A DNA stretch of 64,000 nucleotides. It comes from Candidatus Amesbacteria bacterium GW2011_GWB1_47_19 (lineage in GTDB: Bacteria > Patescibacteriota > Microgenomatia > CAZETR01 > Amesbacteraceae). The stretch spans positions 26,763-90,762 of the forward strand of contig LCNZ01000007.1 of assembly GCA_001002325.1 (NCBI GenBank), read 5' to 3'. Below, one piece after another: positions 29,659-47,329 of the stretch; the first letter of the stretch is position 1, and every line of letters begins with the position of its first letter. The notes under the pieces are model-generated. The model saw only the letters and a list, made by a program, of their open reading frames with translations. It searched no databases and had not been told where the DNA came from. The translations under genes were made by a program, and so were the position numbers.

Positions 29659-29671
29659 TTTGAAATTTAAT

Positions 29672-30121
29672 ATGAAGTGTCCGTTTTGTGCTGCCAGCGA
29701 TACATCGGTGCTGGAATCCAGAGTAGCGGATGACGGACAGTCACTGCGTCGTCGGCGCGAATGCGCCAACTGCCAAAAGCGCTTTACCACTTTTGAGCGG
29801 GTGGAGGGGCCGACTATTTTCGTCATTAAAAGAGACGGCAGCCGCCAGCCTTTTGACAGGGACAAAATTGTCCATGGAGTGACCAGGTCTTTTGACAAAC
29901 GACCGGTTTCCATTGACCAGGTTAACCATCTGGCTGACGAAGTGGAACGGGAAGTCAGACGCCGGGAGGTGTCGGAAATGTCCAGTAAAGTTATTGGCAA
30001 AATGGTACTAAAAAGACTAAAAAATATTGACAAAGTTGCCTGGCTGCGGTTTGCCAGTGTGTATCTGGAGTTGTCAGATGTGACGGAATTTGAAAAGTTA
30101 TTGGAAAAAGTCGCTGTCTAA
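29672..30121 (+). CDS. nrdR: Transcriptional repressor NrdR
   Basis: 'MKCPFCAASDTSVLESR...CANCQKRFTTFE' zinc ribbon followed by an ATP-cone. Confidence 0.9.
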   Translation: MKCPFCAASDTSVLESRVADDGQSLRRRRECANCQKRFTTFERVEGPTIFVIKRDGSRQPFDRDKIVHGVTRSFDKRPVSIDQVNHLADEVEREVRRREVSEMSSKVIGKMVLKRLKNIDKVAWLRFASVYLELSDVTEFEKLLEKVAV

Positions 30122-34550: not shown

Positions 34551-36899
34551 ATGTTACCGGTGAATCTGACGGGGTTGTTGGTCCAGTTGGGAATTTTGGC
34601 GGCGGTGCTGGGAGCACTTGTTGTGCTGGGGATTTTCGGCGGATATGTGGGGATTGCTTTGTATCGGCACAAAGACCGGGAGGAAAAAAGCCTGCAAATG
34701 GTGGTGCTGCAAGTAGCTGTTCCCCGGGACAATGAAATCAAGATTGATGCCATGGAGCAGATATTTTCGAGCTTGTATTCGATCAAGAAAGGAAAGATGG
34801 GATGGTTCGGACTGCTGACATTTTTGCAGGTTCAGCCGCATATTAGCTTTGAGATAGTAGCGCGCAGGGAAGACATAAAATTTTATATCTCGGTGCCGGA
34901 TAAAATGCGGGATCTGGTGGAAAAACAAATCCACGGCGGTTATCCGGGGGCGGAGATAAAAATAGTGGAAGAGCCGACCATTTTTACCGATGAAGGACGG
35001 GTGGAATATGCCTGGATGGTGCTGCGTAATTCGGCGCATTATCCGATGAAAATATTTAAAGACCTGGCGACAGATCCGATGGCCTCCTTAACTTCGGCGA
35101 TGGCGAAAATGGGGGAAGGGGAGGGAGCGCATATCCAGATTCTGATATTTCCGGCCGAAAACAAATGGAAAGGCAAAGGCCGAGCATGGATCGGCAAGAC
35201 CAAGAAGAACGAGGCCAATCCGGAGAAAGCGTCGTACAAGGTTGATCCCAAAGTAATGGAGGCAGTGGACAATAAGATCAGCAAGGCCGGATTTATGACC
35301 ACCATCCGACTGGTAGTGACATCTGCGGATGCGGGGTCGGCTAAGGCACACATGGCAAATCTGAGAGCGGCTTTTGAACAATTTTCCGGAGACCTGAACG
35401 GATTTAAAAGTAAAAAAATAAGAATGAAAGGTAATTTTATGACGGACTTTATTTACCGTTATCAACCAATGGTGTGGTGGGGCAACTGGACGGTTTTAAA
35501 CAGTGAAGAACTGGCGACGATATATCATTTTCCCAACAAAACAATTGAAACCCCGCATATCCATTGGTTGAATGCCAAACGGGCACCGGCACCGCAGCAG
35601 ATTGCGTCTGAAGGCCTGTATATCGGTAAAAGCGTATTTCGGGGAATTACCCGGCCGGTATTTATTACCGATGAAGACCGGGAAAGGCATATGTATATAG
35701 TAGGCCGAACAGGGACGGGAAAAACGGAGTTTTTGAAGACCATGATTTTGCAGGATATCCAGGCGGGAAGGGGTGTGGCAGTTATTGATCCGCATGATCT
35801 GGCTGAGGATCTTTTAGGGTATATTCCACCGGAAAGGGCGGAGGACGTGATCTTTTTTGAACCATCGGATGAACAGTGGCCGATGGGGTTGAACCTGCTG
35901 GAGACACGCAACGAACAGGAAAGGCATATGGCAACCAACGCGGTAATAGGGATGATGTACAAACTGTATGATCCGCATAAAACCGGAATCATTGGACCGA
36001 GATTTGAACACGCTATCAGGAACGCAATGCTGACAGTGATGGATGCTATTCCCGGCGGGACATTTATCGAAGTGGTGCAGACACTGCAGCGGCCGGAATT
36101 CGTACAGGAAATGCTGCCGAGGGTGAAGGACCCGTTGGTGAGGAGGTATTGGACCGACCAGATAGCCCAAACGTCGGAATTTCATAAATCCGAAGTGCTG
36201 GATTATATCGTGTCCAAATTCGGCCGGTTCGTAACCAATAAAACTATCAGAAATATAATCGGACAGTCGGTGTCGGCGTTTGATTTCCGGAAAGTGATGG
36301 ATGAAGGGAGGATTCTGATCGTCAACCTGTCCAAAGGAAAACTGGGGGAGGAGAACAGCAACTTTCTGGGACTGGTGCTGGTGCCCCGGCTGCTGGCGGC
36401 AGCGATGAGCCGGGCGGATATGCCGGAGGCTTCCAGGCGGCCGTTTTATCTGTATGTGGATGAGTTCCAGAACTTTGCCACGCCGGATTTTGCCACCATT
36501 TTGTCCGAGGCCAGGAAATATAAACTGAATCTGACGGTGGCCAACCAATTTACTTCACAAATGGAGGATGAGGTAAAAAATGCGGTATTCGGCAACGTGG
36601 GAACTTTGATTTCGTTCCGGGTGGGGGTGGGAGACGCCAATTACCTGCAGCATGAATACAGCCCGACGTTTAACGAGGCGGATCTGTTAAATATCGAGAG
36701 ATACAATGTATTTATTAAAACGGTGGTGCATAACGAACCGGTACCGCCGTTTACTATGGATGTGACCAAGGATATTGATAAGGAAAGGAAGATGCGCAAT
36801 TCTCAACTGGCGGAGGCGATTAAAGAGTTGTCCCGGCTGAAATACGGGCGGGATGTGAGAATTGTAGAGGCGGAGATAGGAACCAGGTCGAAATTGTAA
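34551..36899 (+). CDS. VirD4/TraG/TraD-like type IV coupling ATPase (T4SS DNA-binding domain protein)
   Basis: N-terminal TM helix; Walker A 'GRTGTGKTEF'; 'LYVDEFQNFATPDFATILSEARKYKLNLTVANQ' matches the TraG/TraD C-terminal region. Confidence 0.6.
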   Translation: MLPVNLTGLLVQLGILAAVLGALVVLGIFGGYVGIALYRHKDREEKSLQMVVLQVAVPRDNEIKIDAMEQIFSSLYSIKKGKMGWFGLLTFLQVQPHISFEIVARREDIKFYISVPDKMRDLVEKQIHGGYPGAEIKIVEEPTIFTDEGRVEYAWMVLRNSAHYPMKIFKDLATDPMASLTSAMAKMGEGEGAHIQILIFPAENKWKGKGRAWIGKTKKNEANPEKASYKVDPKVMEAVDNKISKAGFMTTIRLVVTSADAGSAKAHMANLRAAFEQFSGDLNGFKSKKIRMKGNFMTDFIYRYQPMVWWGNWTVLNSEELATIYHFPNKTIETPHIHWLNAKRAPAPQQIASEGLYIGKSVFRGITRPVFITDEDRERHMYIVGRTGTGKTEFLKTMILQDIQAGRGVAVIDPHDLAEDLLGYIPPERAEDVIFFEPSDEQWPMGLNLLETRNEQERHMATNAVIGMMYKLYDPHKTGIIGPRFEHAIRNAMLTVMDAIPGGTFIEVVQTLQRPEFVQEMLPRVKDPLVRRYWTDQIAQTSEFHKSEVLDYIVSKFGRFVTNKTIRNIIGQSVSAFDFRKVMDEGRILIVNLSKGKLGEENSNFLGLVLVPRLLAAAMSRADMPEASRRPFYLYVDEFQNFATPDFATILSEARKYKLNLTVANQFTSQMEDEVKNAVFGNVGTLISFRVGVGDANYLQHEYSPTFNEADLLNIERYNVFIKTVVHNEPVPPFTMDVTKDIDKERKMRNSQLAEAIKELSRLKYGRDVRIVEAEIGTRSKL

Positions 36900-36944
36900 T
36901 GTAGCTGGAGAGGGGGTAAGGATAAGTAGTAAAATGCGGGGAAC

Positions 36945-37016
36945 GGATCCGTAGCTCAACGGTAGAGCGGCTGTCTTATACACAGTATGTTGGAGGTTCG
37001 AATCCTCCCGGATCCA
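36945..37016 (+). tRNA. tRNA with anticodon TAT (reads AUA; tRNA-Ile(UAU)-like)
   Basis: Cloverleaf folded by hand: acceptor GGATCCG/CGGATCC, D-arm GCTC-AACGGTA-GAGC, anticodon stem GCTGT/ACAGT with loop CTTATAC, T-arm GGAGG-TTCGAAT-CCTCC. CCA is not encoded. Confidence 0.7.
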
Positions 37017-37144
37017 CAGATGCCGGGAGGCAACATTTGTTGTGCCCGGACCGCTTCAGGATGTTGTAGGTCAATCTTGGCCACAGAAGTTTACATCGGT
37101 TGTAAAATGGGCGGATGGCAGGCGGCAAGTTAGAACGATTAATA

Positions 37145-37418: not shown

Positions 37419-38294
37419 TTACAGTTCTAGGAGGCGGGTGGTGGATTCGGTGACGTCGACGGTAATGTGGTCCAGATATTTCTGAGTGGAAGAGAGGCGG
37501 CGATGGCCGACGTGTTTGTGGACTATTTCCGGCTCCACGCCGTGCTTCAACTGGTGGGCGATAAAAGTGTGACGCAGATCATTGATTTTGGCATCTTTGA
37601 CACCGGCTTTGTGGAAATAGCGGCCAATGGCGGTGCGGATGTTTCTGACTAACAGCGGGCGTCCGGTTTTGGTAACAAACAGGTGGGGGTCGACGACTTT
37701 GGGGCGGATGGCCAGGTAATTGGTAACGGCTGAAATAGCCGGGCGGTTGAGAAAAATGTCCCGGGCGGGATTGTTTTCCAGAGACTGGATGTGGACTTCG
37801 GCCTTTTTGAGATCATCCACCCGGAGACTGGCCAGCTCCGATATGCGCATACCCGTTTGGAGGAGCAGCTCAATAATGGTGGAGATACGGATATCCAGAC
37901 GGGCGGCGTCGCGGAGGTTTCTGACTTCGGCGGGGGAAAGGAAGCGCGGAGGTTTGGTGTCGTACTTGGGGTGGATCAGGGGATGGGCGGGATTTTCGGT
38001 GACAATATCCTGATTCTGGAGGAATTTAAAAAAGGTTTTCAGAGAATTGATCTTGCGGCTGACGCTCTTTGGAGTGTAGTTTTTTGAGGCCAGATCCTGA
38101 ATGTAGCCTTCCAGATGTTCGGTACGCACGGTCGTAGCCTGGGTAATGCGATGGCTGTCCAGGTGTTTTCGGAGCTGCTGCAGGTCGCTGCCGTAAGCGG
38201 TGGTGGTAGCCGAGGATCGTTTTTGAGTTCGGAGGTGGGCCAGGAACTTCTCCAGGGCAGTCGTAAAACTTACCGGCTGGGGTAAATCTGTCAT
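37419..38294 (-). CDS. Tyrosine site-specific recombinase (XerC/XerD-like integrase)
   Basis: C-terminal catalytic 'RHTFIAHQLKHG...HVGHRRLSSTQKYLDH' (R..HxxR..Y) and an N-terminal SAM-like domain. Confidence 0.8.
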   Translation of the reverse strand: MTDLPQPVSFTTALEKFLAHLRTQKRSSATTTAYGSDLQQLRKHLDSHRITQATTVRTEHLEGYIQDLASKNYTPKSVSRKINSLKTFFKFLQNQDIVTENPAHPLIHPKYDTKPPRFLSPAEVRNLRDAARLDIRISTIIELLLQTGMRISELASLRVDDLKKAEVHIQSLENNPARDIFLNRPAISAVTNYLAIRPKVVDPHLFVTKTGRPLLVRNIRTAIGRYFHKAGVKDAKINDLRHTFIAHQLKHGVEPEIVHKHVGHRRLSSTQKYLDHITVDVTESTTRLLEL

Positions 38295-38378: not shown

Positions 38379-38753
38379 ATGCGTAAATCCGGGTGGAAAG
38401 GATGGATCCTGATAATTCTGGGTTCGGTGACAGCCGTGAGAACGGGGATGAATGTTTACAGACTGTGGCAGAGAGGGGGGAGAGTGGGTGAAACCAGGCA
38501 ACAGCTGGAGGCGGCGAAGGCGGAGAACCGGAGATTGCAGACGAAGCTGGAGGAGGTGCAGACTGATGAATTCGTCGAAAAGGAAGCCCGTGAGAAACTG
38601 GGGTACGGGAGGGAAGGTGAGACGGTTCTTATTTTGCCAAAACAGGATAATGCTCAGGGGCCAGTCATGCCTGCCGGCAGGCAGGTGCTCAGTACTCAGG
38701 AACCGGAAATTCCCAATTGGAGGAAGTGGTGGAAGCTGTATGTGAGGTTATAG
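38379..38753 (+). CDS. Septum formation initiator FtsB/DivIC-like
   Basis: N-terminal TM helix plus coiled coil (QQLEAAKAENRRLQTKLEEVQ) and 'EKEAREKLGY'. Confidence 0.65.
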   Translation: MRKSGWKGWILIILGSVTAVRTGMNVYRLWQRGGRVGETRQQLEAAKAENRRLQTKLEEVQTDEFVEKEAREKLGYGREGETVLILPKQDNAQGPVMPAGRQVLSTQEPEIPNWRKWWKLYVRL

Positions 38754-38791: not shown

Positions 38792-38867
38792 TGGTGGCTA
38801 CGGCTGGATTCGGACCAGCGATCCCTTGTTTATGATACAAGTGCTTTAACCACTAAGCTACGTAGCC
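38792..38867 (-). tRNA. tRNA-Met (anticodon CAT), elongator-type, CCA encoded
   Basis: Reverse complement gives GGCTACG-TA-GCTT-AGTGGTTA-AAGC...anticodon loop ATCATAA...T-arm GCTGG-TCCGAAT-CCAGC-CGTAGCC-A-CCA. The 1:72 position is a G-C pair. Confidence 0.8.
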
Positions 38868-39541
38868 AAGGTTTTTGCGAGACCATGTATCTCGCCGAGG
38901 ATTTTATAATAGATTCTGGCTGGCCGTTTAACTCTAATTGATAATGTGCCGTAGTGATCGTTAAAATTTTCAAAATCTTTTTTAAGTGGGTATTTTTTGA
39001 AGCTGGTTTTGGTAAAACTTTCGAGAGGAATTCCTGTTTGACTTGACCAATATTTTTTTACTATACCCTCTCGAATTTTATGAGTTTCGTTGATACCCAC
39101 ATAGCAAGATAATTCTTGCTTAGGTATTCGATAGCTCGATTTGAGCCAATTTATGTATGATTTTATCATTAGGGGATCAGAGTTGCATAGTTCTATTCTT
39201 CTTGCCTTTTTCGTTCCCTCGGACCAGTAGAGGCAAATCCCTGCGATTTTCCTTTCTTTGATTGACAGCCGACGAAACTCTTTTTCTCCATCATGGTTAT
39301 GTTTATTAATGAGTTCCAGCCTTCTCCTTTTCAAGATGAGGGAGTTCTTAAGACGGGCTTTATTTGATGCGGATATTTGGTCTGATTTGAGTTTATCTAC
39401 TTGCTCGGGTGAAAGAATAATATGTCTTGTCCATAGACTGGCAGTGCTTTTGGCCACATTAAGTGCTTTAGCAATATTTCTCACACTTGTTCCAGAAGTT
39501 CTTAATTTAATAGCCTCTATTCGTAAGGAACTCTTTGACAT
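38858..39541 (-). CDS. Free-standing HTH + LAGLIDADG-like homing-endonuclease-like protein (paralog A)
   Basis: N-terminal HTH (RTSGTSVRNIAKALNVAKSTASLW). C-terminal 'IAGICLYWSEG...CNSDPLMIKSYINWL...VGINETH...GTLSIRV'. The NSDP...I...L block resembles the '[17 protein letters not shown]' block of the FtsH intein endonuclease. Its 3' end overlaps the tRNA-Met by ~10 nt. Confidence 0.55.
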   Translation of the reverse strand: MSKSSLRIEAIKLRTSGTSVRNIAKALNVAKSTASLWTRHIILSPEQVDKLKSDQISASNKARLKNSLILKRRRLELINKHNHDGEKEFRRLSIKERKIAGICLYWSEGTKKARRIELCNSDPLMIKSYINWLKSSYRIPKQELSCYVGINETHKIREGIVKKYWSSQTGIPLESFTKTSFKKYPLKKDFENFNDHYGTLSIRVKRPARIYYKILGEIHGLAKTLAT

Positions 39542-39680
39542 CTATAGATATCATATTATTCGGTTTTTGTTTGGTTTGTCAAGAGTACTTTATTATTTAT
39601 TATTGAGCTACGCAGCCTCGAGAGCATTTTACCAAAAATCCGCTTTTGACTGGATGAGATCAGGACGGTTCTTCTAATAA

Positions 39681-40355
39681 CTAGTTATATTTTACTGCCA
39701 TAATTAGTCCTTTTATTTTCCTTAAAAGATCAGTACTTTTGAGAATCCTAATTCTCAATGTCCCAAAATAATTTTCCGGATGGTCATATGTTTTTTTCCA
39801 GGAGGTCTTTTGAAAAAAAGGTTTATAAAATTGGGTATTGGGGATACTAGTAATTTCCGACCAATACTTTTCGATTTCTTCAACCCGATGACTATGAGAT
39901 TCATTTATTCCGACCCTTAATCTGATTAAGTCTTTGGAAACAGATAGGGAATTGATTAACCATTCAATAATAAAGTTGATCATTTCCGGATCAGAATTGG
40001 CAAATCCGGCCATTTTGTCCTTCTTGAATCCCTCCGCCCAATATAAAGCAGTCCCTGCCAGAAGTTTTTCTCTGGCGCTCAGGTTAATTAGCATGTTTTT
40101 CGCTTCTGATCTGATTAGTTTTTCTTTGGTAAGTCTATACGCTTGTTGTTTTAGAGCATAAGAGAGTCTTCTTCCATAGTACGGATCCCTAGAGTTTTTC
40201 TCTAACTGAGATATTTGTTCAGGAGTGAGCTTAATATCTCTGCACCATAAACTGGCTGTACTGGTAGAGACAGCAAGATCCCGTGCAATTTCTTTGATAC
40301 TTTTCCCTTCGGATCTGAGATGCCTGGCTTCAGTCTTTTGTCTGGTTTTTGCCAT
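39681..40355 (-). CDS. Free-standing HTH + LAGLIDADG-like homing-endonuclease-like protein (paralog B)
   Basis: N-terminal HTH (RSEGKSIKEIARDLAVSTSTASLW); 'LLAGTALYWAEGFKK...ANSDPEMINFIIEWL...VGINESH...GTLRIRI'. Clear paralog of 38858..39541. Confidence 0.55.
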   Translation of the reverse strand: MAKTRQKTEARHLRSEGKSIKEIARDLAVSTSTASLWCRDIKLTPEQISQLEKNSRDPYYGRRLSYALKQQAYRLTKEKLIRSEAKNMLINLSAREKLLAGTALYWAEGFKKDKMAGFANSDPEMINFIIEWLINSLSVSKDLIRLRVGINESHSHRVEEIEKYWSEITSIPNTQFYKPFFQKTSWKKTYDHPENYFGTLRIRILKSTDLLRKIKGLIMAVKYN

Positions 40356-40425: not shown

Positions 40426-40448
40426 TGTGAGTTCTTTTATAAGGCGCG

Positions 40449-40711
40449 TGCGGGGTAGTGTAGAGCTGCACGGAAGGCTAGTAGTATGGGCCCCGCCGGT
40501 AGTAATACCGGTGCGCAAACTTGGCTATATCGGTGGACATCCTGAGCTTGTCGAAGGACAATACCGAGGCAACCTCGAAAGAGAGAGTCCGTAGAGACTA
40601 CACGCCAAGCACCCCGACGTTATGTCGGGGTGATGATATAGTCCGACTCCCCGAGTAATCGGGGTCAGAATGCATAATCTTCCAGACCGGGCGCGACTCC
40701 CGGCCCCGCAA
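40449..40711 (+). tRNA. tRNA-Met(CAU) (initiator-like acceptor stem) interrupted by a group I intron in the anticodon loop; exons 40449..40479 and 40673..40711
   Basis: Exon 1 reads TGCGGGG-TA-GTGT-AGAGCT-GCAC-G-GAAGG-CT and ends at U33. Exon 2 reads CATAA-TCTTC-CAGA-CCGGG-CGCGACT-CCCGG-CCCCGCA-A. The spliced anticodon loop is CUCAUAA. The acceptor GCGGGG/CCCCGC-A-A matches E. coli tRNA-fMet. Followed by a T-run. Confidence 0.65.
40480..40672 (+). ncRNA. Group I self-splicing intron (193 nt, no ORF) in the tRNA-Met anticodon loop
   Basis: P1: exon GGCU pairs with IGS GGCC (40489-92) with U·G at the splice site. P10: IGS UAUG pairs with the 3' exon start CAUA. P7 strands AGACUA (40595-600) and UAGUC (40639-43) flank the P8 hairpin CCCCGAC-GUUAU-GUCGGGG. 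P9 is CCCCGA-GUAA-UCGGGG with a GNRA loop. The terminal G is at 40672. The core resembles the Tetrahymena intron (GAUAUAGUCGGACC) and the Azoarcus tRNA-Ile intron (GUAGAGACUAGACGG). Confidence 0.65.
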
Positions 40712-40783: not shown

Positions 40784-41083
40784 ATGACCACTGAAATCAG
40801 GTTAAGAAAACTGACAGACGGGCTTCCACAGGGAACCCCGATAAATATCAGCCCCGATTTGCATCGGTTGCATAGGGAGTTACATCAGGCTGCAATCTCA
40901 GAGGAGAAAACGCCATACTCTCAGGAGGCTTTGGTTATTTACTTTGGTTTGCTTACCCAGGCTGAGAAGCATTTTTTTGCGGAGTGGAGCGGACAGGTGT
41001 TAAGTATAGTGCTGGATATATATTGTGAACACAATCCGCCGGGGGCGATAAAGCATCCGATGAAAGATCTCAGGTTGGGGTAG
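40784..41083 (+). CDS. Hypothetical protein
   Basis: 99 aa ORF; no recognisable motif. Confidence 0.3.
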   Translation: MTTEIRLRKLTDGLPQGTPINISPDLHRLHRELHQAAISEEKTPYSQEALVIYFGLLTQAEKHFFAEWSGQVLSIVLDIYCEHNPPGAIKHPMKDLRLG

Positions 41084-41116
41084 AATCGAAGACTAAACCT
41101 ATAGTATAATGTAAGG

Positions 41117-41968
41117 ATGAATCATCATGAGGGGAGGAGGGCTTTCTTGGCATTAGTAGTAACTTCACCTTTCTGGTGTACCATGTTTTACCTGGGTATT
41201 CGTGGTGTGTTGACTATGGAACCGAAGGAGGACGTGCCGGGAAGTGAGCGATCAGGGATGCAAGAGCCGCCAAATGTGGGCGAAGAGGCCATACCTGTAC
41301 CTGATTTGAAGATGAATATTCCCGACGGGTATAGGGGTGAGAGTATCGGGCCCGGAGTTGAGATGTATAAAAACGGACAGGAGTGGGTGCAAGTCGTGGA
41401 TTTGGAGAAGGCTAAGTTGGTGGTGGTTGATTCTGAAAAAGGATGGAAAAAGCCTGATTGGTTTTGGAGTAAATTTAAGAAAAAGTATAAAGGCAGAGCG
41501 ACCAGTTTGTTCGGAGCTGTCCATTATGCCGAAGGCAGGTTACAATTCGGGCTTCGGGACGGAGAAGAGATTTGGAATAGAGAAATTGACAGTGGGCTAG
41601 CCGGACAGAGAATGCTGTCTATTGAAGGAAACTATGCGAAAGTGGGGGGATATGACAAGGATAAACTGGACGGGGATGAAGGTGTGGTTATCGGAGGTGA
41701 AGGGATAGAGAAATCGAACAGGGAATGGAATAAGCGGCGGGCCAGGACGATTTTGACTGCGGATGAGACGGGACGGAAGTTATTGGTGATGGTTTTTGCC
41801 GGTGCGACCAGAGAAGACGTAATCAAGGTACTGAAAAAATGGGGAATTGCCGAGGCGAACGCCATAAATATCCAGGGAGGAACATTTACGGAATTGAGAG
41901 TAAGGGGGAACGAGCTGCTAGGGTATGGTGAGGACGTGACTTTAATGCTGGGTATAGTAGAAAGATAG
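41117..41968 (+). CDS. Membrane-anchored phosphodiester-glycosidase-like (DUF2233) protein
   Basis: N-terminal TM helix. C-terminal 'LLVMVFAGATREDV...AEANAINIQGGTFTEL' resembles the phosphodiester glycosidase 'AxNLDGGGS' region. Confidence 0.4.
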   Translation: MNHHEGRRAFLALVVTSPFWCTMFYLGIRGVLTMEPKEDVPGSERSGMQEPPNVGEEAIPVPDLKMNIPDGYRGESIGPGVEMYKNGQEWVQVVDLEKAKLVVVDSEKGWKKPDWFWSKFKKKYKGRATSLFGAVHYAEGRLQFGLRDGEEIWNREIDSGLAGQRMLSIEGNYAKVGGYDKDKLDGDEGVVIGGEGIEKSNREWNKRRARTILTADETGRKLLVMVFAGATREDVIKVLKKWGIAEANAINIQGGTFTELRVRGNELLGYGEDVTLMLGIVER

Positions 41969-41971
41969 ATT

Positions 41972-42637
41972 ATGATAGAAGATTTATTGAGAACAGAATC
42001 ACGACTGGTAGGGGCTAAATATCTGAAGAGTTTGGAAAAAAGGAGAGTCGATAGGACTATGGCGGGATTATTTACCATACCGGCAATTGCGGCTTTGGGT
42101 CTTGCTATTCCGGTATGGTTGGAAGATGGACAAAATCCAATGGTGGATGCAGGGGGAATGCGTGAGGGGCGATGGGCGCCTTTGTGGAAAGTGAGGACAA
42201 TGATACCCGGAGCGCAAGAATTGGAGTCTAAAATTACAGGAGGCCGGCCGTTACTTGAAGTAAAGAGTGACTGTGACCCAAGGGTAACCAAGACAGGAAG
42301 AGTAATAAGGAAAACTACCCTGGATGAATTACCCCAAGTATTTGCAGTGTGGGCAGGGAAATGTCATTTTGTAGGGCCACGAGTTCCGGCGATTACCGAA
42401 TGGGAATGGATAATAAAGCATGGCAATACCGGAGTTTATCGGGAATATTTAGAGAAGGTCAGAGACGGATTGGGATTCGGGGCGGTCGGTATGTACATGG
42501 CAATAAACCGGGGGATGCAGGATTTTGAACAGAGGCTGGAATTGGATGTTCTCTATTGGGAAAAGGCCAGTGCAGCTGCAGATTGGAGAATACTGGGGGC
42601 AGCAATGTTGGGAATAATTAAGTCCAGAGGAAAGTAG
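41972..42637 (+). CDS. Sugar transferase (polyprenyl-phosphate glycosyl-1-phosphate transferase, WbaP/WcaJ C-terminal-domain type)
   Basis: 'LWKVRTM', 'DPRVTKTGRVIRKTTLDELPQVFAVWAGKCHFVGPR' Bac_transf motif, and an N-terminal TM helix. Confidence 0.75.
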   Translation: MIEDLLRTESRLVGAKYLKSLEKRRVDRTMAGLFTIPAIAALGLAIPVWLEDGQNPMVDAGGMREGRWAPLWKVRTMIPGAQELESKITGGRPLLEVKSDCDPRVTKTGRVIRKTTLDELPQVFAVWAGKCHFVGPRVPAITEWEWIIKHGNTGVYREYLEKVRDGLGFGAVGMYMAINRGMQDFEQRLELDVLYWEKASAAADWRILGAAMLGIIKSRGK

Positions 42638-44182: not shown

Positions 44183-47100
44183 ATGGCTACACTTCGCCAA
44201 GGTCCTACGGGTGGTACTAAGAAAAAGCTACCAGTGAGAGGTTTTATGCTGCAGCTGAACCTGGATTTCCAGAAACTGTTGTGGTTGCTGGTGGTGATAT
44301 TGATGGGATTGTCACTTTTGGAGCTGTGGAATAGCGGTAAGCAGACCAGCCAGGAAGTTCAACTGTCGCAAGCGCTGTCTGATATCAAAGACGGCAAGGT
44401 GGAGAAAGTGGAGATTTTCTCGGAACGGCTGTCGCTGAAATATAAAGACAGCAAAGACCAGTTTTTTTCCCGTAAGGAACCGGGGGAAAGTTTTACTGAG
44501 ATTCTGGAGAGGGCAAAGATCCCCGCAGAAGCTGTGCAGTATGAGATAAAAGATGAAACTTTCGGCCAGTTGATAGCGGCGGTATTGCCCAGCGTAATCG
44601 GGACGGGGGTGGTGCTGTTGGTTCTGTTGTATATGTTCCGGCAAGCCAGGGGTGCCCAGGATTCGGTATTTTCTTTCGGCCAGAGCCGGGCAAAATTGTT
44701 TGACAAGGGCAAACAAAGCGTGAAATTTTCGGACGTAGCCGGGGTGGACGAAGCCAAGAAAGAACTGGAAGAAGTGGTGGACTTTTTGAAAAGTCCGGGT
44801 AAATACCGGGCAGTAGGGGCCAGGACTCCCAAAGGGGCGCTTTTGGTGGGACCGTCGGGGGTGGGAAAGTGCGTGACCGGTGATACCATAATATGGACCA
44901 ATAAGGGATTGATGGAGATAAAAGAGGTCCCGCGTTACTATTATGTTGATACAAAATCGCATCGGGTTTACGGGGCAGGACTGGCTGGTTTTGATACGGA
45001 CAAGGTGATATCAAAGGATGAATTCGCTTCCCATTGGTACAATTTGGGTGAACAAGCAACCGTTAAAGTACAGTTGGCGCAGGGGTTTGATATAGAAGGG
45101 ACTCCCGAGCATCCGGTAGTAGTAATGGCCGGAGATGGCAAGTTACGATTTAGAAAATTACAGGATGTGAAACTGGGGGATTATGCTGCCCTGCAGTTTG
45201 GCAGAGGTATGTTTGGGAACTTACAAATGGTGGATGCAGACACGGCTTATCTGATGGGACTATTAACGGGAGATGGAAATATGAGTCATGCTAGTAGGGT
45301 GGGGTTGACTAATATTGATCCGGAAATAATCTCGTTTTTTGAAAATTATATAAAGAAGAGATATCCGGAGAATGCGATTACAGTGAGACAGCAGTCCTAT
45401 CTGGTGTCCAGTTGGCAATTTAAACGATCTCTTTATGAGATGGGGATGTCTTATCTGTTATCTTTTGATAAGAGTGTGCCGGTGACGATATTACAGGCAT
45501 CGAGAGGAATTCAGATAATGTTTTTGAGGGGTCTGTTTGATACTGACGCCAGTGTGGAGAAGAGCAGGGCGACGATAGAGTATACAACCGTTAGCGAAAA
45601 AATGGCTAAACAGATACAAATGATGCTATTGAATATGGGGGTGGTAGCCTATTTGAATGTCAAAGGAAAAACTGAAAATGGTTATTATCGGCCTGTTTAT
45701 CGTTTGAACATAACCGGGTCCCCGTTCGTGGAATTCAGCAGGCAAATTGGGTTCGGTTTGGTTAGAAAACAACGACTTTTGGAAAGGCATGTGGAGAAAA
45801 TGGGACGAGTGAATACTAATATTGATGTAATTCCCGGAGTCGGAGGGATGATAGAAGAAGCGTGGAGGTTGATTTCCGCTCGTAAGATGAGCAATGAAAA
45901 ACTATCAAAGACGGTTGATAAAGTGAGGAATAGGAATAGGGTTTCCAGACAAACACTAGAGGATTTTGTGGAGTATTCCAGCCAGACGGGAATGGAGATG
46001 CCTGACCTGGAGTATTTGGGAAATTTGTTGGAAGCTAAGCTGTTTTTTTCAAAAGTAGTAGAAAAAACGGAAAATAAGGGTGTGGTTTATGATTTTACCG
46101 TGCCTCAAACACATAGTTTTTTGGGAAACGGATTTGTAAATCATAATACACTGTTGGCCAGGGCGGTGGCGGGAGAAGCGGGAGTACCGTTTTTTTCAAT
46201 GGCAGGATCGGAGTTTATGGAAATGCTGGTGGGGGTGGGAAGTGCCCGGGTGAGGGATTTGTTTAACACAGCTAAAAAAGCAGCCCCGTCAATTATTTTT
46301 ATTGATGAAATTGACGCTATCGGAAGGCAGCGGGGACACGGGTTGATGGGTGGGCACGATGAAAGGGAACAAACATTGAATCAGATACTGGTGGAGATGG
46401 ACGGATTTACGCCTAATGATAATGTGGTGGTGCTGGCGGCAACAAACAGAGGGGATCTGCTGGATCCTGCACTTTTACGGCCCGGCAGGTTTGACCGGCG
46501 GGTGGTGGTGGATATGCCTGACATTGAAGGACGGAAAGCAATTCTGGCAATTTATGCCCGAAATAAACCAATAGCCGAAGGAGTGGATTGGAGTGCGGTG
46601 GCGAGAAGGACAGTCGGGTTTTCCGGAGCGGATCTGGAAAATATGCTGAATGAAGCGGCGATTGGTGTAGCCCGGGAAAACCACAAGACCATGACGATGC
46701 AGGATATCGAGGAAGCAGCTACGAAAGTAAAGCTGGGTCCGCAAAAGAAGCGGATGCAATCCGAGGAGGACCGGAAAATGACGGCTTACCATGAGGTGGG
46801 ACATGCGATTGTGACGTGGGCCCAACCGGGGATGGATCCGGTGCACAGGATATCGATTGTGTCGCGGGGAATGACATTGGGACATACGCTGGTGCCACCG
46901 TCGACGGACAGGGTACATGAGACTAAAAACCGGCTGTTGTCACAGGTGGCCATGATGCTGGGGGGAAGAGCTGCGGAAGAGATGGTTTTTTCCGAGGTCA
47001 CTACCGGTGCGGCTAATGATATTGATAAAGCCACCAGAGTAGCCCGGGATATGGTGATGGAGTACGGCATGAGCAGTCTGGGACCCGTCAATTACGGACC

Positions 47101-47329
47101 GCAGCAGGATATGGTGGAATGGGGACGGACTTATATTGAGCAGCCGCCTATTTCGCAGGAAATGCAGGCAAAGATTGATACGGAAGTAAAAAGAATCATG
47201 GACGAAGGATATCTGAAGGCGGTTGCCATATTAAAAAAATACCGGAAAAGGCTGGATGCCGTATCGCTGAGACTTCTGGAAATTGAAACTATGGACGGGG
47301 ATGAGTTTGAGAAGATCATGAAGGCGTAA
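44183..47329 (+). CDS. ftsH: ATP-dependent zinc metalloprotease FtsH, interrupted by an in-frame intein in the Walker A P-loop
   Basis: N-terminal TM helices, AAA motifs (GPSGVGK|...|[15 protein letters not shown], '[13 protein letters not shown]'), and the Zn-protease 'HEVGHAIV'. At 1048 aa it is too long because a 426-aa insert sits between GK and T of GxxGxGKT. Confidence 0.9.
44870..46147 (+). mobile_element. Intein (426 aa) with LAGLIDADG homing-endonuclease domain, inserted in the FtsH P-loop
   Basis: Begins with Cys1 (CVTGDTIIW) and contains a TxxH block B (GTPEHPV). The two LAGLIDADG motifs are '[12 protein letters not shown]' and '[12 protein letters not shown]'. The intein ends with ...VYDF...GFVNHN followed by the +1 Thr of the extein (TLLARAV). 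Confidence 0.85.

Follow-up and report, generated by a model that had tools for sequence, protein, structure and literature searches.

A tRNA-Ile with a UAU anticodon as the probable decoder of AUA in Candidatus Amesbacteria

AUA and AUG are the sole purine-ending codon pair that the standard genetic code splits between two amino acids, and bacteria usually solve the reading of AUA with lysidine made by TilS, a solution described as near-universal and essential. We analyzed a 64,000-nucleotide stretch of Candidatus Amesbacteria bacterium GW2011_GWB1_47_19 (the window, meaning this whole stretch), which carries at 36945..37016 a tRNA gene with a UAU anticodon. The evidence indicates, with a probability that we place at about 0.78, that this is a genuine tRNA-Ile(UAU) that decodes the abundant AUA codons of Candidatus Amesbacteria, very probably alone, and that, judging by tRNA counts, tRNA-Ile2(CAU) together with TilS has been replaced across Microgenomatia. 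In such a system, U34 would pair with the third-position A of AUA, so that no conversion of C34 to lysidine would be needed; the isoleucyl-tRNA synthetase (IleRS) would have to accept U34, and misreading of AUG would have to be limited through the body of the tRNA, the ribosome or a modification of U34. Control of AUG misreading has been shown experimentally for Mycoplasma mobile only (PMC3575796). The sequence that we read comprised the window and loci of about 20 kb from its relatives.

The gene and its immediate neighbors, which serve below as markers of its position, are as follows.

36945..37016, + strand: tRNA-Ile(UAU), 72 nt to the discriminator A73, CCA not encoded (ARAGORN, Rfam, fold, covariation)
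34551..36899, + strand: DUF8128 / FtsK-TraG-like P-loop ATPase, 782 aa, the upstream synteny anchor (Pfam, PHROG 5156, PF26449, in the window and relatives)
37419..38294, − strand: Xer-type tyrosine recombinase, 291 aa, the downstream synteny anchor (PF00589, Phage_integrase, and PF02899, SAM-like N domain)
38379..38753, + strand: DivIC/FtsB-like septation protein, 124 aa, conserved beside Xer (PF04977 in the window and all relatives)
38792..38867, − strand: elongator-type tRNA-Met(CAU), CCA encoded (ARAGORN; Rfam, 69.8 bits; PMC1635315 rules)

ARAGORN reported a tRNA-Ile with anticodon tat at 36945..37017 (+), and the match to Rfam RF00005 spanned the full model at 36945..37016 (74.6 bits, E 1.7e-14). 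Divided by structural element, the sequence reads GGAUCCG UA GCUC AACGGUA GAGC G GCUGU CUUAUAC ACAGU AUGUU GGAGG UUCGAAU CCUCC CGGAUCC A, with an acceptor stem of 7 bp, a D stem of 4 bp (GG in its loop), an anticodon stem of 5 bp, the anticodon loop CUUAUAC (U34 A35 U36, A37, C38), a variable loop of 5 nt and a T arm with UUCGAAU. This cloverleaf is also the minimum-free-energy fold (−27.8 kcal/mol, z = −3.6), and none of 200 shuffled sequences folded as well. The initial annotation had folded it by hand with the anticodon loop CTTATAC, and the two finders and the computed fold agree with that structure. Among the features typical of tRNA-Ile, the gene has A73, A37, U12-A23 and A3-U70 (i.e., 3-70 is not C-G); the rules behind this comparison are those of E. 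coli (PMC1635315; identity work cited in PMC3575796), and the match is indicative only.

To follow the gene in relatives, we used a scan of GTDB genomes with tryptophanyl-tRNA synthetase (TrpRS), in which a single locus, L010 from a Patescibacteria metagenome-assembled genome, had tRNAs within 10 kb; contigs fetched by orthologues of the recombinase (Xer) were more productive and gave eight further loci, L052 to L059, with 62–72% identity to the recombinase of the window. In L010, the order of genes is DUF8128 ATPase, tRNA(UAU), xer, divIC, tRNA-Met, an initiator-like tRNA and trpS. The slot between the DUF8128/FtsK-like gene and Xer holds a tRNA(UAU) in seven of the nine genomes in which it could be read, counting the window; the five Xer contigs among them are L052, L054, L055, L056 and L057, and L059, whose contig ends before the slot, was left out of the count. 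The seven UAU tRNAs have bodies of two types, an ordinary one that we call form A (window, L010, L052, L055) and a second, form B (L054, L056, L057).

The alignment of these seven orthologues revealed pairing in all 147 stem cells (147/147), and both sides had changed in 12 of the 21 stem pairs, a result that none of 500 shuffles equaled; shifting the register of the alignment gave nothing near the true covariation. The first six bases of the anticodon loop (CUUAUA), A37 and A73 are invariant in 7/7, over loci whose concatenated neighbor proteins differ down to 55% identity (L010). By this comparison, the tRNA(UAU) is under purifying selection and has been vertically inherited since before the split of L010, and tRNA-Ile(UAU), xer, divIC, tRNA-Met(CAU) and the initiator-like tRNA(CAU) form, as judged from gene order, a conserved cluster of AUR-codon tRNAs. 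A promoter-like site precedes the gene:

36906..36935, + strand: promoter-like site, TGGAGA, an 18-nt spacer and TAAAAT, ending 9 nt before the tRNA(UAU) (consensus scan)

It matches the consensus at 9 of 12 positions, which is weak taken alone, and it presumably serves the tRNA. By eye, a (G)TAAAAT(T) box lies at most 50 nt before the tRNA of the slot in 7/7 loci (window, L052, L053, L054, L056, L057, L058).

The initial annotation had connected the gene with the decoding of AUA, and this codon proved to be in heavy use: the 25 confident genes of the window contain 192 AUA codons (17.3 per 1000), and 29% of their Ile codons are AUA. We examined its meaning by aligning the window proteins to the DNA of relatives and tallying the residues opposite each codon, skipping positions where the relatives themselves have ATA. 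Opposite AUA of the window stood Ile (37–38%), Val (20–28%), Leu (6–10%) and Met (2–9%). AUU and AUC gave a profile of the same kind, and AUG a different one, with 37–52% Met. In each of the eight genomes tested, AUA aligned above all with Ile and Val, including those with form B and those with tRNA-Glu in the slot (see below), and Glu was outside the six commonest residues opposite AUA in every one of them. On these codon-aware alignments, AUA is Ile, and its reading as Met or Glu was rejected.

We then considered whether the other tRNAs of the window could include the usual AUA reader. The initial annotation had assigned two nearby CAU tRNAs to the elongator and initiator roles, and the discriminating positions of PMC1635315 fit this assignment, the second gene being split by an intron and initiator-like. 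Its parts are:

40449..40479, + strand: 5′ exon of the initiator-like tRNA(CAU), positions 1–33, UGCGGGG UA GUGU AGAGCU GCAC G GAAGG CU
40480..40672, + strand: group I intron, 193 nt, without an open reading frame (ORF), between tRNA positions 33 and 34 (Rfam RF00028)
40673..40711, + strand: 3′ exon of the initiator-like tRNA(CAU), positions 34–73, CAUAA UCUUC CAGA CCGGG CGCGACU CCCGG CCCCGCA A

By the rules of Silva et al. 2006 (PMC1635315), C3-G70 points to Met or fMet tRNAs and G3, A3, C70 or U70 to Ile2; C4-G69 and C5-G68 are frequent in Ile2, and A11-U24 with G12-C23 belongs to fMet. The tRNA at 38792..38867 has the acceptor GGCUACG, C3-G70, U4-A69, A5-U68, C11-G24, A73 and the T-loop UCCGAAU, and C3, G70 and A73 are invariant in ten orthologues. 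By sequence it is an elongator tRNA-Met, every diagnostic feature tested being in agreement. In the split tRNA, the acceptor UGCGGGG/CCCCGCA with A73 (G2-C71, C3-G70, G4-C69) is invariant in eight genomes. The acceptor of E. coli tRNA-fMet is the same save for C1×A72 in place of U1-A72. The D stem has G12-C23, with U-A rather than A-U at 11-24, and the anticodon stem GAAGG/UCUUC has one of the three G-C pairs of fMet (30-40), 29-41 being A-U and 31-39 G·U. We therefore describe this tRNA as initiator-like and not as a proven member of the fMet class. Since both local CAU tRNAs carry C3-G70, the Met/fMet signature, this pair argues against Ile2, and by these positions neither looks like tRNA-Ile2(CAU). 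A tRNA-Ile2(CAU) was not found in the 64-kb window. When E. coli TilS was compared by tblastn with the window and with 27 loci of relatives, every match had E>1; this covers a small fraction of a genome and is a weak, local and insensitive test. The top match (L024) falls in an ORF that is UvrC-like by eye.

Evidence at the level of the lineage came from Table S2 of PMC13011429, which gives ARAGORN tRNA counts per amino acid for 95 complete Patescibacteria genomes. ARAGORN assigns identity from the anticodon, and its Met column therefore includes every CAU tRNA. In our reading of this table, at least two Ile tRNAs together with at most two Met tRNAs occur in 12/12 Microgenomatia and 7/7 Dojkabacteria, and also in Doudnabacteria, WWE3, UBA1384, about two-thirds of Paceibacteria and half of ABY1. 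The reverse pattern is found in Saccharimonadia, where 36/36 genomes have at least three Met tRNAs and most have one Ile tRNA, and one Ile with at least three Met tRNAs was counted in 7/7 JAEDAM01, in Kazan-3B-28 and in 3/5 Gracilibacteria. Reciprocal counts of this kind are the pattern predicted if tRNA-Ile(UAU) replaces tRNA-Ile2(CAU), and they fit a lineage-wide replacement; with the two CAU tRNAs taken as initiator and elongator, the counts of Microgenomatia leave no room for a third. The statement in the initial annotation that most bacteria lack a UAU tRNA is correct for bacteria overall; in several classes of this phylum, however, a UAU tRNA is, from these counts, apparently the rule. 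PMC13011429 does not mention UAU, tilS or lysidine, and our literature search found no paper that ties tilS or lysidine to Patescibacteria or to the candidate phyla radiation (CPR).

Several observations weigh against the reading given above. Position 38 of the window tRNA is C, versus A38, an Ile identity element in E. coli; L052 and L055 share this C, and the four remaining UAU orthologues have A. L053 and L058 hold a tRNA-Glu(UUC) in the slot and still use AUA, so that the decoder can sit elsewhere and the locus is not immutable. The entries of Table S2 are counts and not anticodons, so that the second Ile tRNA could in principle be another copy of a GAU gene, and ARAGORN would miss an Ile2 gene split by an intron. 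Finally, the genome was seen over 64 kb, IleRS is not encoded in the window, and it, tilS and tRNA-Ile2(CAU) may lie beyond. The unseen part of the genome and the use of AUA in L053 and L058 also speak for a redundant arrangement in which tilS and tRNA-Ile2(CAU) are kept elsewhere and AUA is read both by the lysidine-bearing (LAU) and by the UAU tRNA. Double systems exist: Lactobacillus casei, Cyanothece PCC 7424 and Ferrimonas balearica also have a UAU Ile tRNA but keep the canonical tilS system, and reading of AUA by both tRNAs has been proposed for them (PMC3575796). In an unrelated metagenome contig, L033, a tRNA(UAU) lies next to an Ile2-like tRNA(CAU), showing that a mixed state occurs in nature. 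However, by ARAGORN none of the 12 complete Microgenomatia genomes has more than two CAU tRNAs, and each has at least two with an Ile anticodon; these class-level counts argue against a double system of the L. casei type in Amesbacteria. In addition, the search of PMC13011429 for group I introns in the tRNA genes of these genomes lists no Ile2 gene from Patescibacteria, and a TilS-like sequence was absent from the loci searched, with the weakness already stated for that test. We consider redundancy unlikely. With respect to the initial annotation, its alternative strategy for AUA stands in so far as a functional-looking tRNA-Ile(UAU) exists and AUA is heavily used as Ile; the loss of tilS that it named as one possibility goes further than these searches carry.

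Two other explanations were considered. The gene could be cargo or an attachment site of a mobile element that encodes the adjacent recombinase and the FtsK/TraG-like ATPase. A recombinase had been noted next to the tRNA from the outset, and it is indeed present about 400 nt downstream, with the ATPase immediately upstream, both of kinds common on integrative elements; the stretch at 38–40 kb has a lower GC content (0.42) and genes on the opposite strand. However, the order DUF8128, tRNA, xer, divIC, tRNA-Met is kept in relatives as distant as L010, and the recombinase has the same neighbors in all ten related loci examined, so its adjacency to the tRNA(UAU) is no sign of a mobile element. It has 4380 homologues at E<=1e-30, the top 120 at 59–100% identity, and several carry XerD or XerC as source names; from its homology and synteny, it is an Xer-type gene of the chromosome and belongs to the conserved backbone. 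Integrative elements are recognized by variable presence, an attachment (att) repeat and foreign composition, and the locus showed none of these: the 3′ end of the tRNA has no att-like repeat elsewhere in the window, and GC content and GC skew around the tRNA resemble the rest of it. A mobile origin is thus highly improbable. The idea that the UAU tRNA does not act as tRNA-Ile, either because AUA is reassigned, for example to Met, or because another synthetase charges it, appears hardly credible. AUA means Met in many mitochondria, the form B orthologues are tRNA-Glu-like, a tRNA-Glu(UUC) occupies the slot in L053 and L058, and Met is opposite AUA in 6–17% of cases versus 1–4% for AUU/AUC. In contrast, Ile and Val predominate opposite AUA in the eight genomes, Met remains far below its profile at AUG, its small excess is what single-step mutation between ATA and ATG leads one to expect, and the tRNA of the window, a form A gene, has A73 and a body like that of an ordinary tRNA-Ile.

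A tRNA-Ile(UAU) without TilS has precedents, since M. mobile and other tilS-less bacteria use one (PMC3575796; PMC8450103). The closest likeness is to the tRNA-Ile2(UAU) of M. mobile (Taniguchi et al. 2013, PMC3575796), where a tRNA-Ile gene with a TAT anticodon also reads AUA as Ile in a reduced genome and a tRNA-Ile2(CAU) is likewise not detectable (here, within the window). In M. mobile, U34 is unmodified, a Trp-to-Arg change lets IleRS accept U34, the ribosome contributes to the rejection of AUG and tilS is absent. The change in M. mobile is also recent and confined to one genus, whereas here the trait is common to the whole clade and probably to whole classes. In Bifidobacterium and Neorickettsia, the UAU tRNA replaces tRNA-Ile2(CAU) without tilS as a lineage trait and not as the oddity of a single strain, as it seems to do here; there it is linked to a horizontally acquired eukaryote-type IleRS, which is perhaps how U34 is tolerated (PMC3575796). 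The tRNA-Ile3(UAU) of Nanoarchaeum equitans and Korarchaeum cryptofilum (PMC8450103) belongs likewise to ultra-small or deep-branching uncultured organisms without a C34-modifying enzyme, but these are archaea and the enzyme lost is TiaS, which makes agmatidine, and not TilS. In Bacillus subtilis, a tilS suppressor with G34 changed to U in tRNA-Ile1 shows that one anticodon change takes over the decoding of AUA (PMC3919564; Fabret et al. 2011); that suppressor is a laboratory mutant of tRNA-Ile1(GAU), whereas the Amesbacteria gene may derive from Ile1, Ile2 or another tRNA.

UAU decoding itself is thus known, and Amesbacteria are a further case, in a phylum where it has apparently gone unremarked. 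Nine tilS-less bacterial species were listed in 2013 (PMC3575796), the tRNAscan-SE 2.0 survey of 2021 found the UAU type in 17 bacterial genomes (PMC8450103), and 371 distinct Ile tRNA genes with a TAT anticodon have been found in metagenomes (PMC3575796 / PMC8450103). Such a tRNA seems normal for this branch of the CPR and uncommon otherwise. For the window alone, the result is a sound annotation and not a new mechanism. Each lineage that independently adopted a plain UAU anticodon is a natural experiment on how IleRS, the ribosome and the tRNA body deal with misreading of AUG. If the replacement is true of the CPR clade or of whole classes, the distribution known from the 17 genomes would be much widened, TilS would be missing from a sizeable share of bacterial diversity and would fail there as a universal bacterial marker or drug target, and annotating these genomes would require no search for Ile2 among their CAU tRNAs.

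The slot itself may have a history of its own. The relevant tRNAs are:

L053, 11084-11158, − strand: tRNA-Glu(UUC) in the slot
L058, 5084-5158, − strand: tRNA-Glu(UUC) in the slot, identical to that of L053
L054, 10992-11063: form B tRNA(UAU)
L056, 11240-11311: form B tRNA(UAU)
L057, 11146-11219: form B tRNA(UAU)

Form B is characterized by U8 C9, U11-A24, Y13-G22 and a variable loop of 4 nt. It retains the acceptor and T stems of form A, except for the T stem of L057, and its D-arm, 4-nt variable loop and T-loop resemble the tRNA-Glu(UUC) of L053 and L058; the slot tRNAs of L054 and L056 thus join Glu-like parts to the acceptor and T stem of the ordinary form. In a tree of the neighbor proteins, form A is basal, and the genomes with form B and with tRNA-Glu in the slot cluster. 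From these sequences, the slot tRNA may show an in-place change of identity or gene conversion. As a tentative extension, to which we give somewhat less than an even chance, UAU decoding of AUA may be standard in whole CPR classes (Microgenomatia, Dojkabacteria, WWE3, UBA1384, Doudnabacteria and much of Paceibacteria and ABY1), and the slot gene of Amesbacteria may have been remolded from form A to form B to tRNA-Glu(UUC).

A pattern scan of metagenomes for similar UAU tRNAs returned 19 contigs, none from a close relative and nearly all of them tRNA arrays, a sign that UAU tRNAs are widespread. Most of these tRNAs (L034-L051; e.g., L037 3772-11159, L043, L048 and L050) stand at the head of dense arrays with Ile(UAU), Val(GAC), Leu(GAG), Val(UAC), Phe, Gly and more, on contigs of 36–44% GC; in L047, ARAGORN called a ‘tRNA-Tyr(ata)’ directly after the UAU tRNA. 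In the 1.2-kb contig L033, the tRNA(UAU) and the tRNA(CAU) lie 200 nt apart, at 713-785 (−) and 993-1066 (−). Their acceptor stems (GGACCC) and D-arms are the same, and the CAU gene has A3, C4 and C5, as in Ile2. From their sequences, the pair looks like duplicates that differ at C34/U34, a possible evolutionary intermediate.

The intron of the initiator-like tRNA explains why standard tRNA finders miss this gene. Its 5′ half ends ...GGAAGGCU and its 3′ half starts CAUAAUCUUCC..., and excision of 40480-40672 leaves a 71-nt tRNA(cat) that ARAGORN recognizes. The Rfam RF00028 match (71 bits, E 5e-16) has the coordinates 40447-40665, which absorb the 5′ exon; the splice junction was set by intron-less orthologues that equal the spliced product (L010, L052, L055, L056, L057 and L058). 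By eye, the intron has the group I features P1 (GGCU/GGCC, with U·G at the splice site), P10 (CAUA/UAUG) and a terminal G. Its occurrence is sporadic, being present in the window, L053 and L054 and not in the six intron-less orthologues. The position between 33 and 34 is the known group I intron site of tRNA-fMet(CAU) in cyanobacteria (PMC13011429), and the ‘Met(CAT)’ tRNAs of two complete Microgenomatia genomes in Table S3 of the same work agree with it in insertion site and in the UGCGGGG...CCCCGCAA tRNA body, so this intron-split type is already described.

The loops of both CAU tRNAs vary in the clade. The initiator-like tRNA of Amesbacteria has a D-loop, AGAGCU, without GG and a T-loop, CGCGACU, without U54-U55, and that of L010 has ACGGCU and UUCAACU; the two loops seem to have changed together. 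In the elongator tRNA-Met, several genomes of the clade, though not all, have a T-loop beginning UCCGA, with C at position 55, which is normally pseudouridine. The genes compared were:

initiator-like tRNA: window 40449-40711; L052 8777-8849; L055 697-767; L056 198-268; L057 3746-3818; L058 1285-1355
elongator tRNA-Met: window 38792-38867 (−); L010 9741-9817; L053 9229-9302; L055 938-1010; L056 9208-9281

A further ARAGORN call, ‘tRNA-Asp(gtc)’ at 29843..29926 (−), 84 nt, was rejected as a false positive. It has no Rfam hit even at E<=1 and lies antisense inside the ORF 29660..30121, which by synteny has the position of nrdR upstream of the ribonucleotide reductase gene.

The window is chromosomal DNA and not a phage or island. 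Such an origin was rejected, since a megablast of the window against phage records gave no match and its gene content is cellular, with two class A penicillin-binding proteins, GAPDH, transketolase, class II ribonucleotide reductase, TrpRS, FtsH, Fpg, RecF, an ATP-dependent DNA ligase and thioredoxin reductase. Its proteins have identical copies in assemblies from the Rifle aquifer, including GCA_001773795.1, which fits an uncultured bacterium of groundwater. The recombinase has 100% identity to a protein that NCBI assigns to ‘Candidatus Amesbacteria bacterium RIFOXYB1_FULL_47_...’, and by TrpRS the nearest GTDB species representatives are Microgenomates/Patescibacteria at 56–61% identity. The stretch from tRNA-Met to trpS (38858-40355, 40784-42637) varies among relatives, and in L010 trpS directly follows the tRNAs. 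In the window, its lower-GC patch at 38–40 kb contains two minus-strand ORFs, one with a weak HTH_23 match, and the variable stretch also holds three further genes, one of them a sugar transferase. FtsH (44183-47329) is 1048 aa long and contains an intein with a LAGLIDADG endonuclease domain at about residues 229–655, and its orthologues in L010 and L053 are 632 aa long and lack it. GC skew is positive throughout the window (1-64000; +0.17 to +0.39 in 2-kb windows) and AT skew is mostly positive; as most genes are on the + strand, the coding strands are markedly purine-rich.

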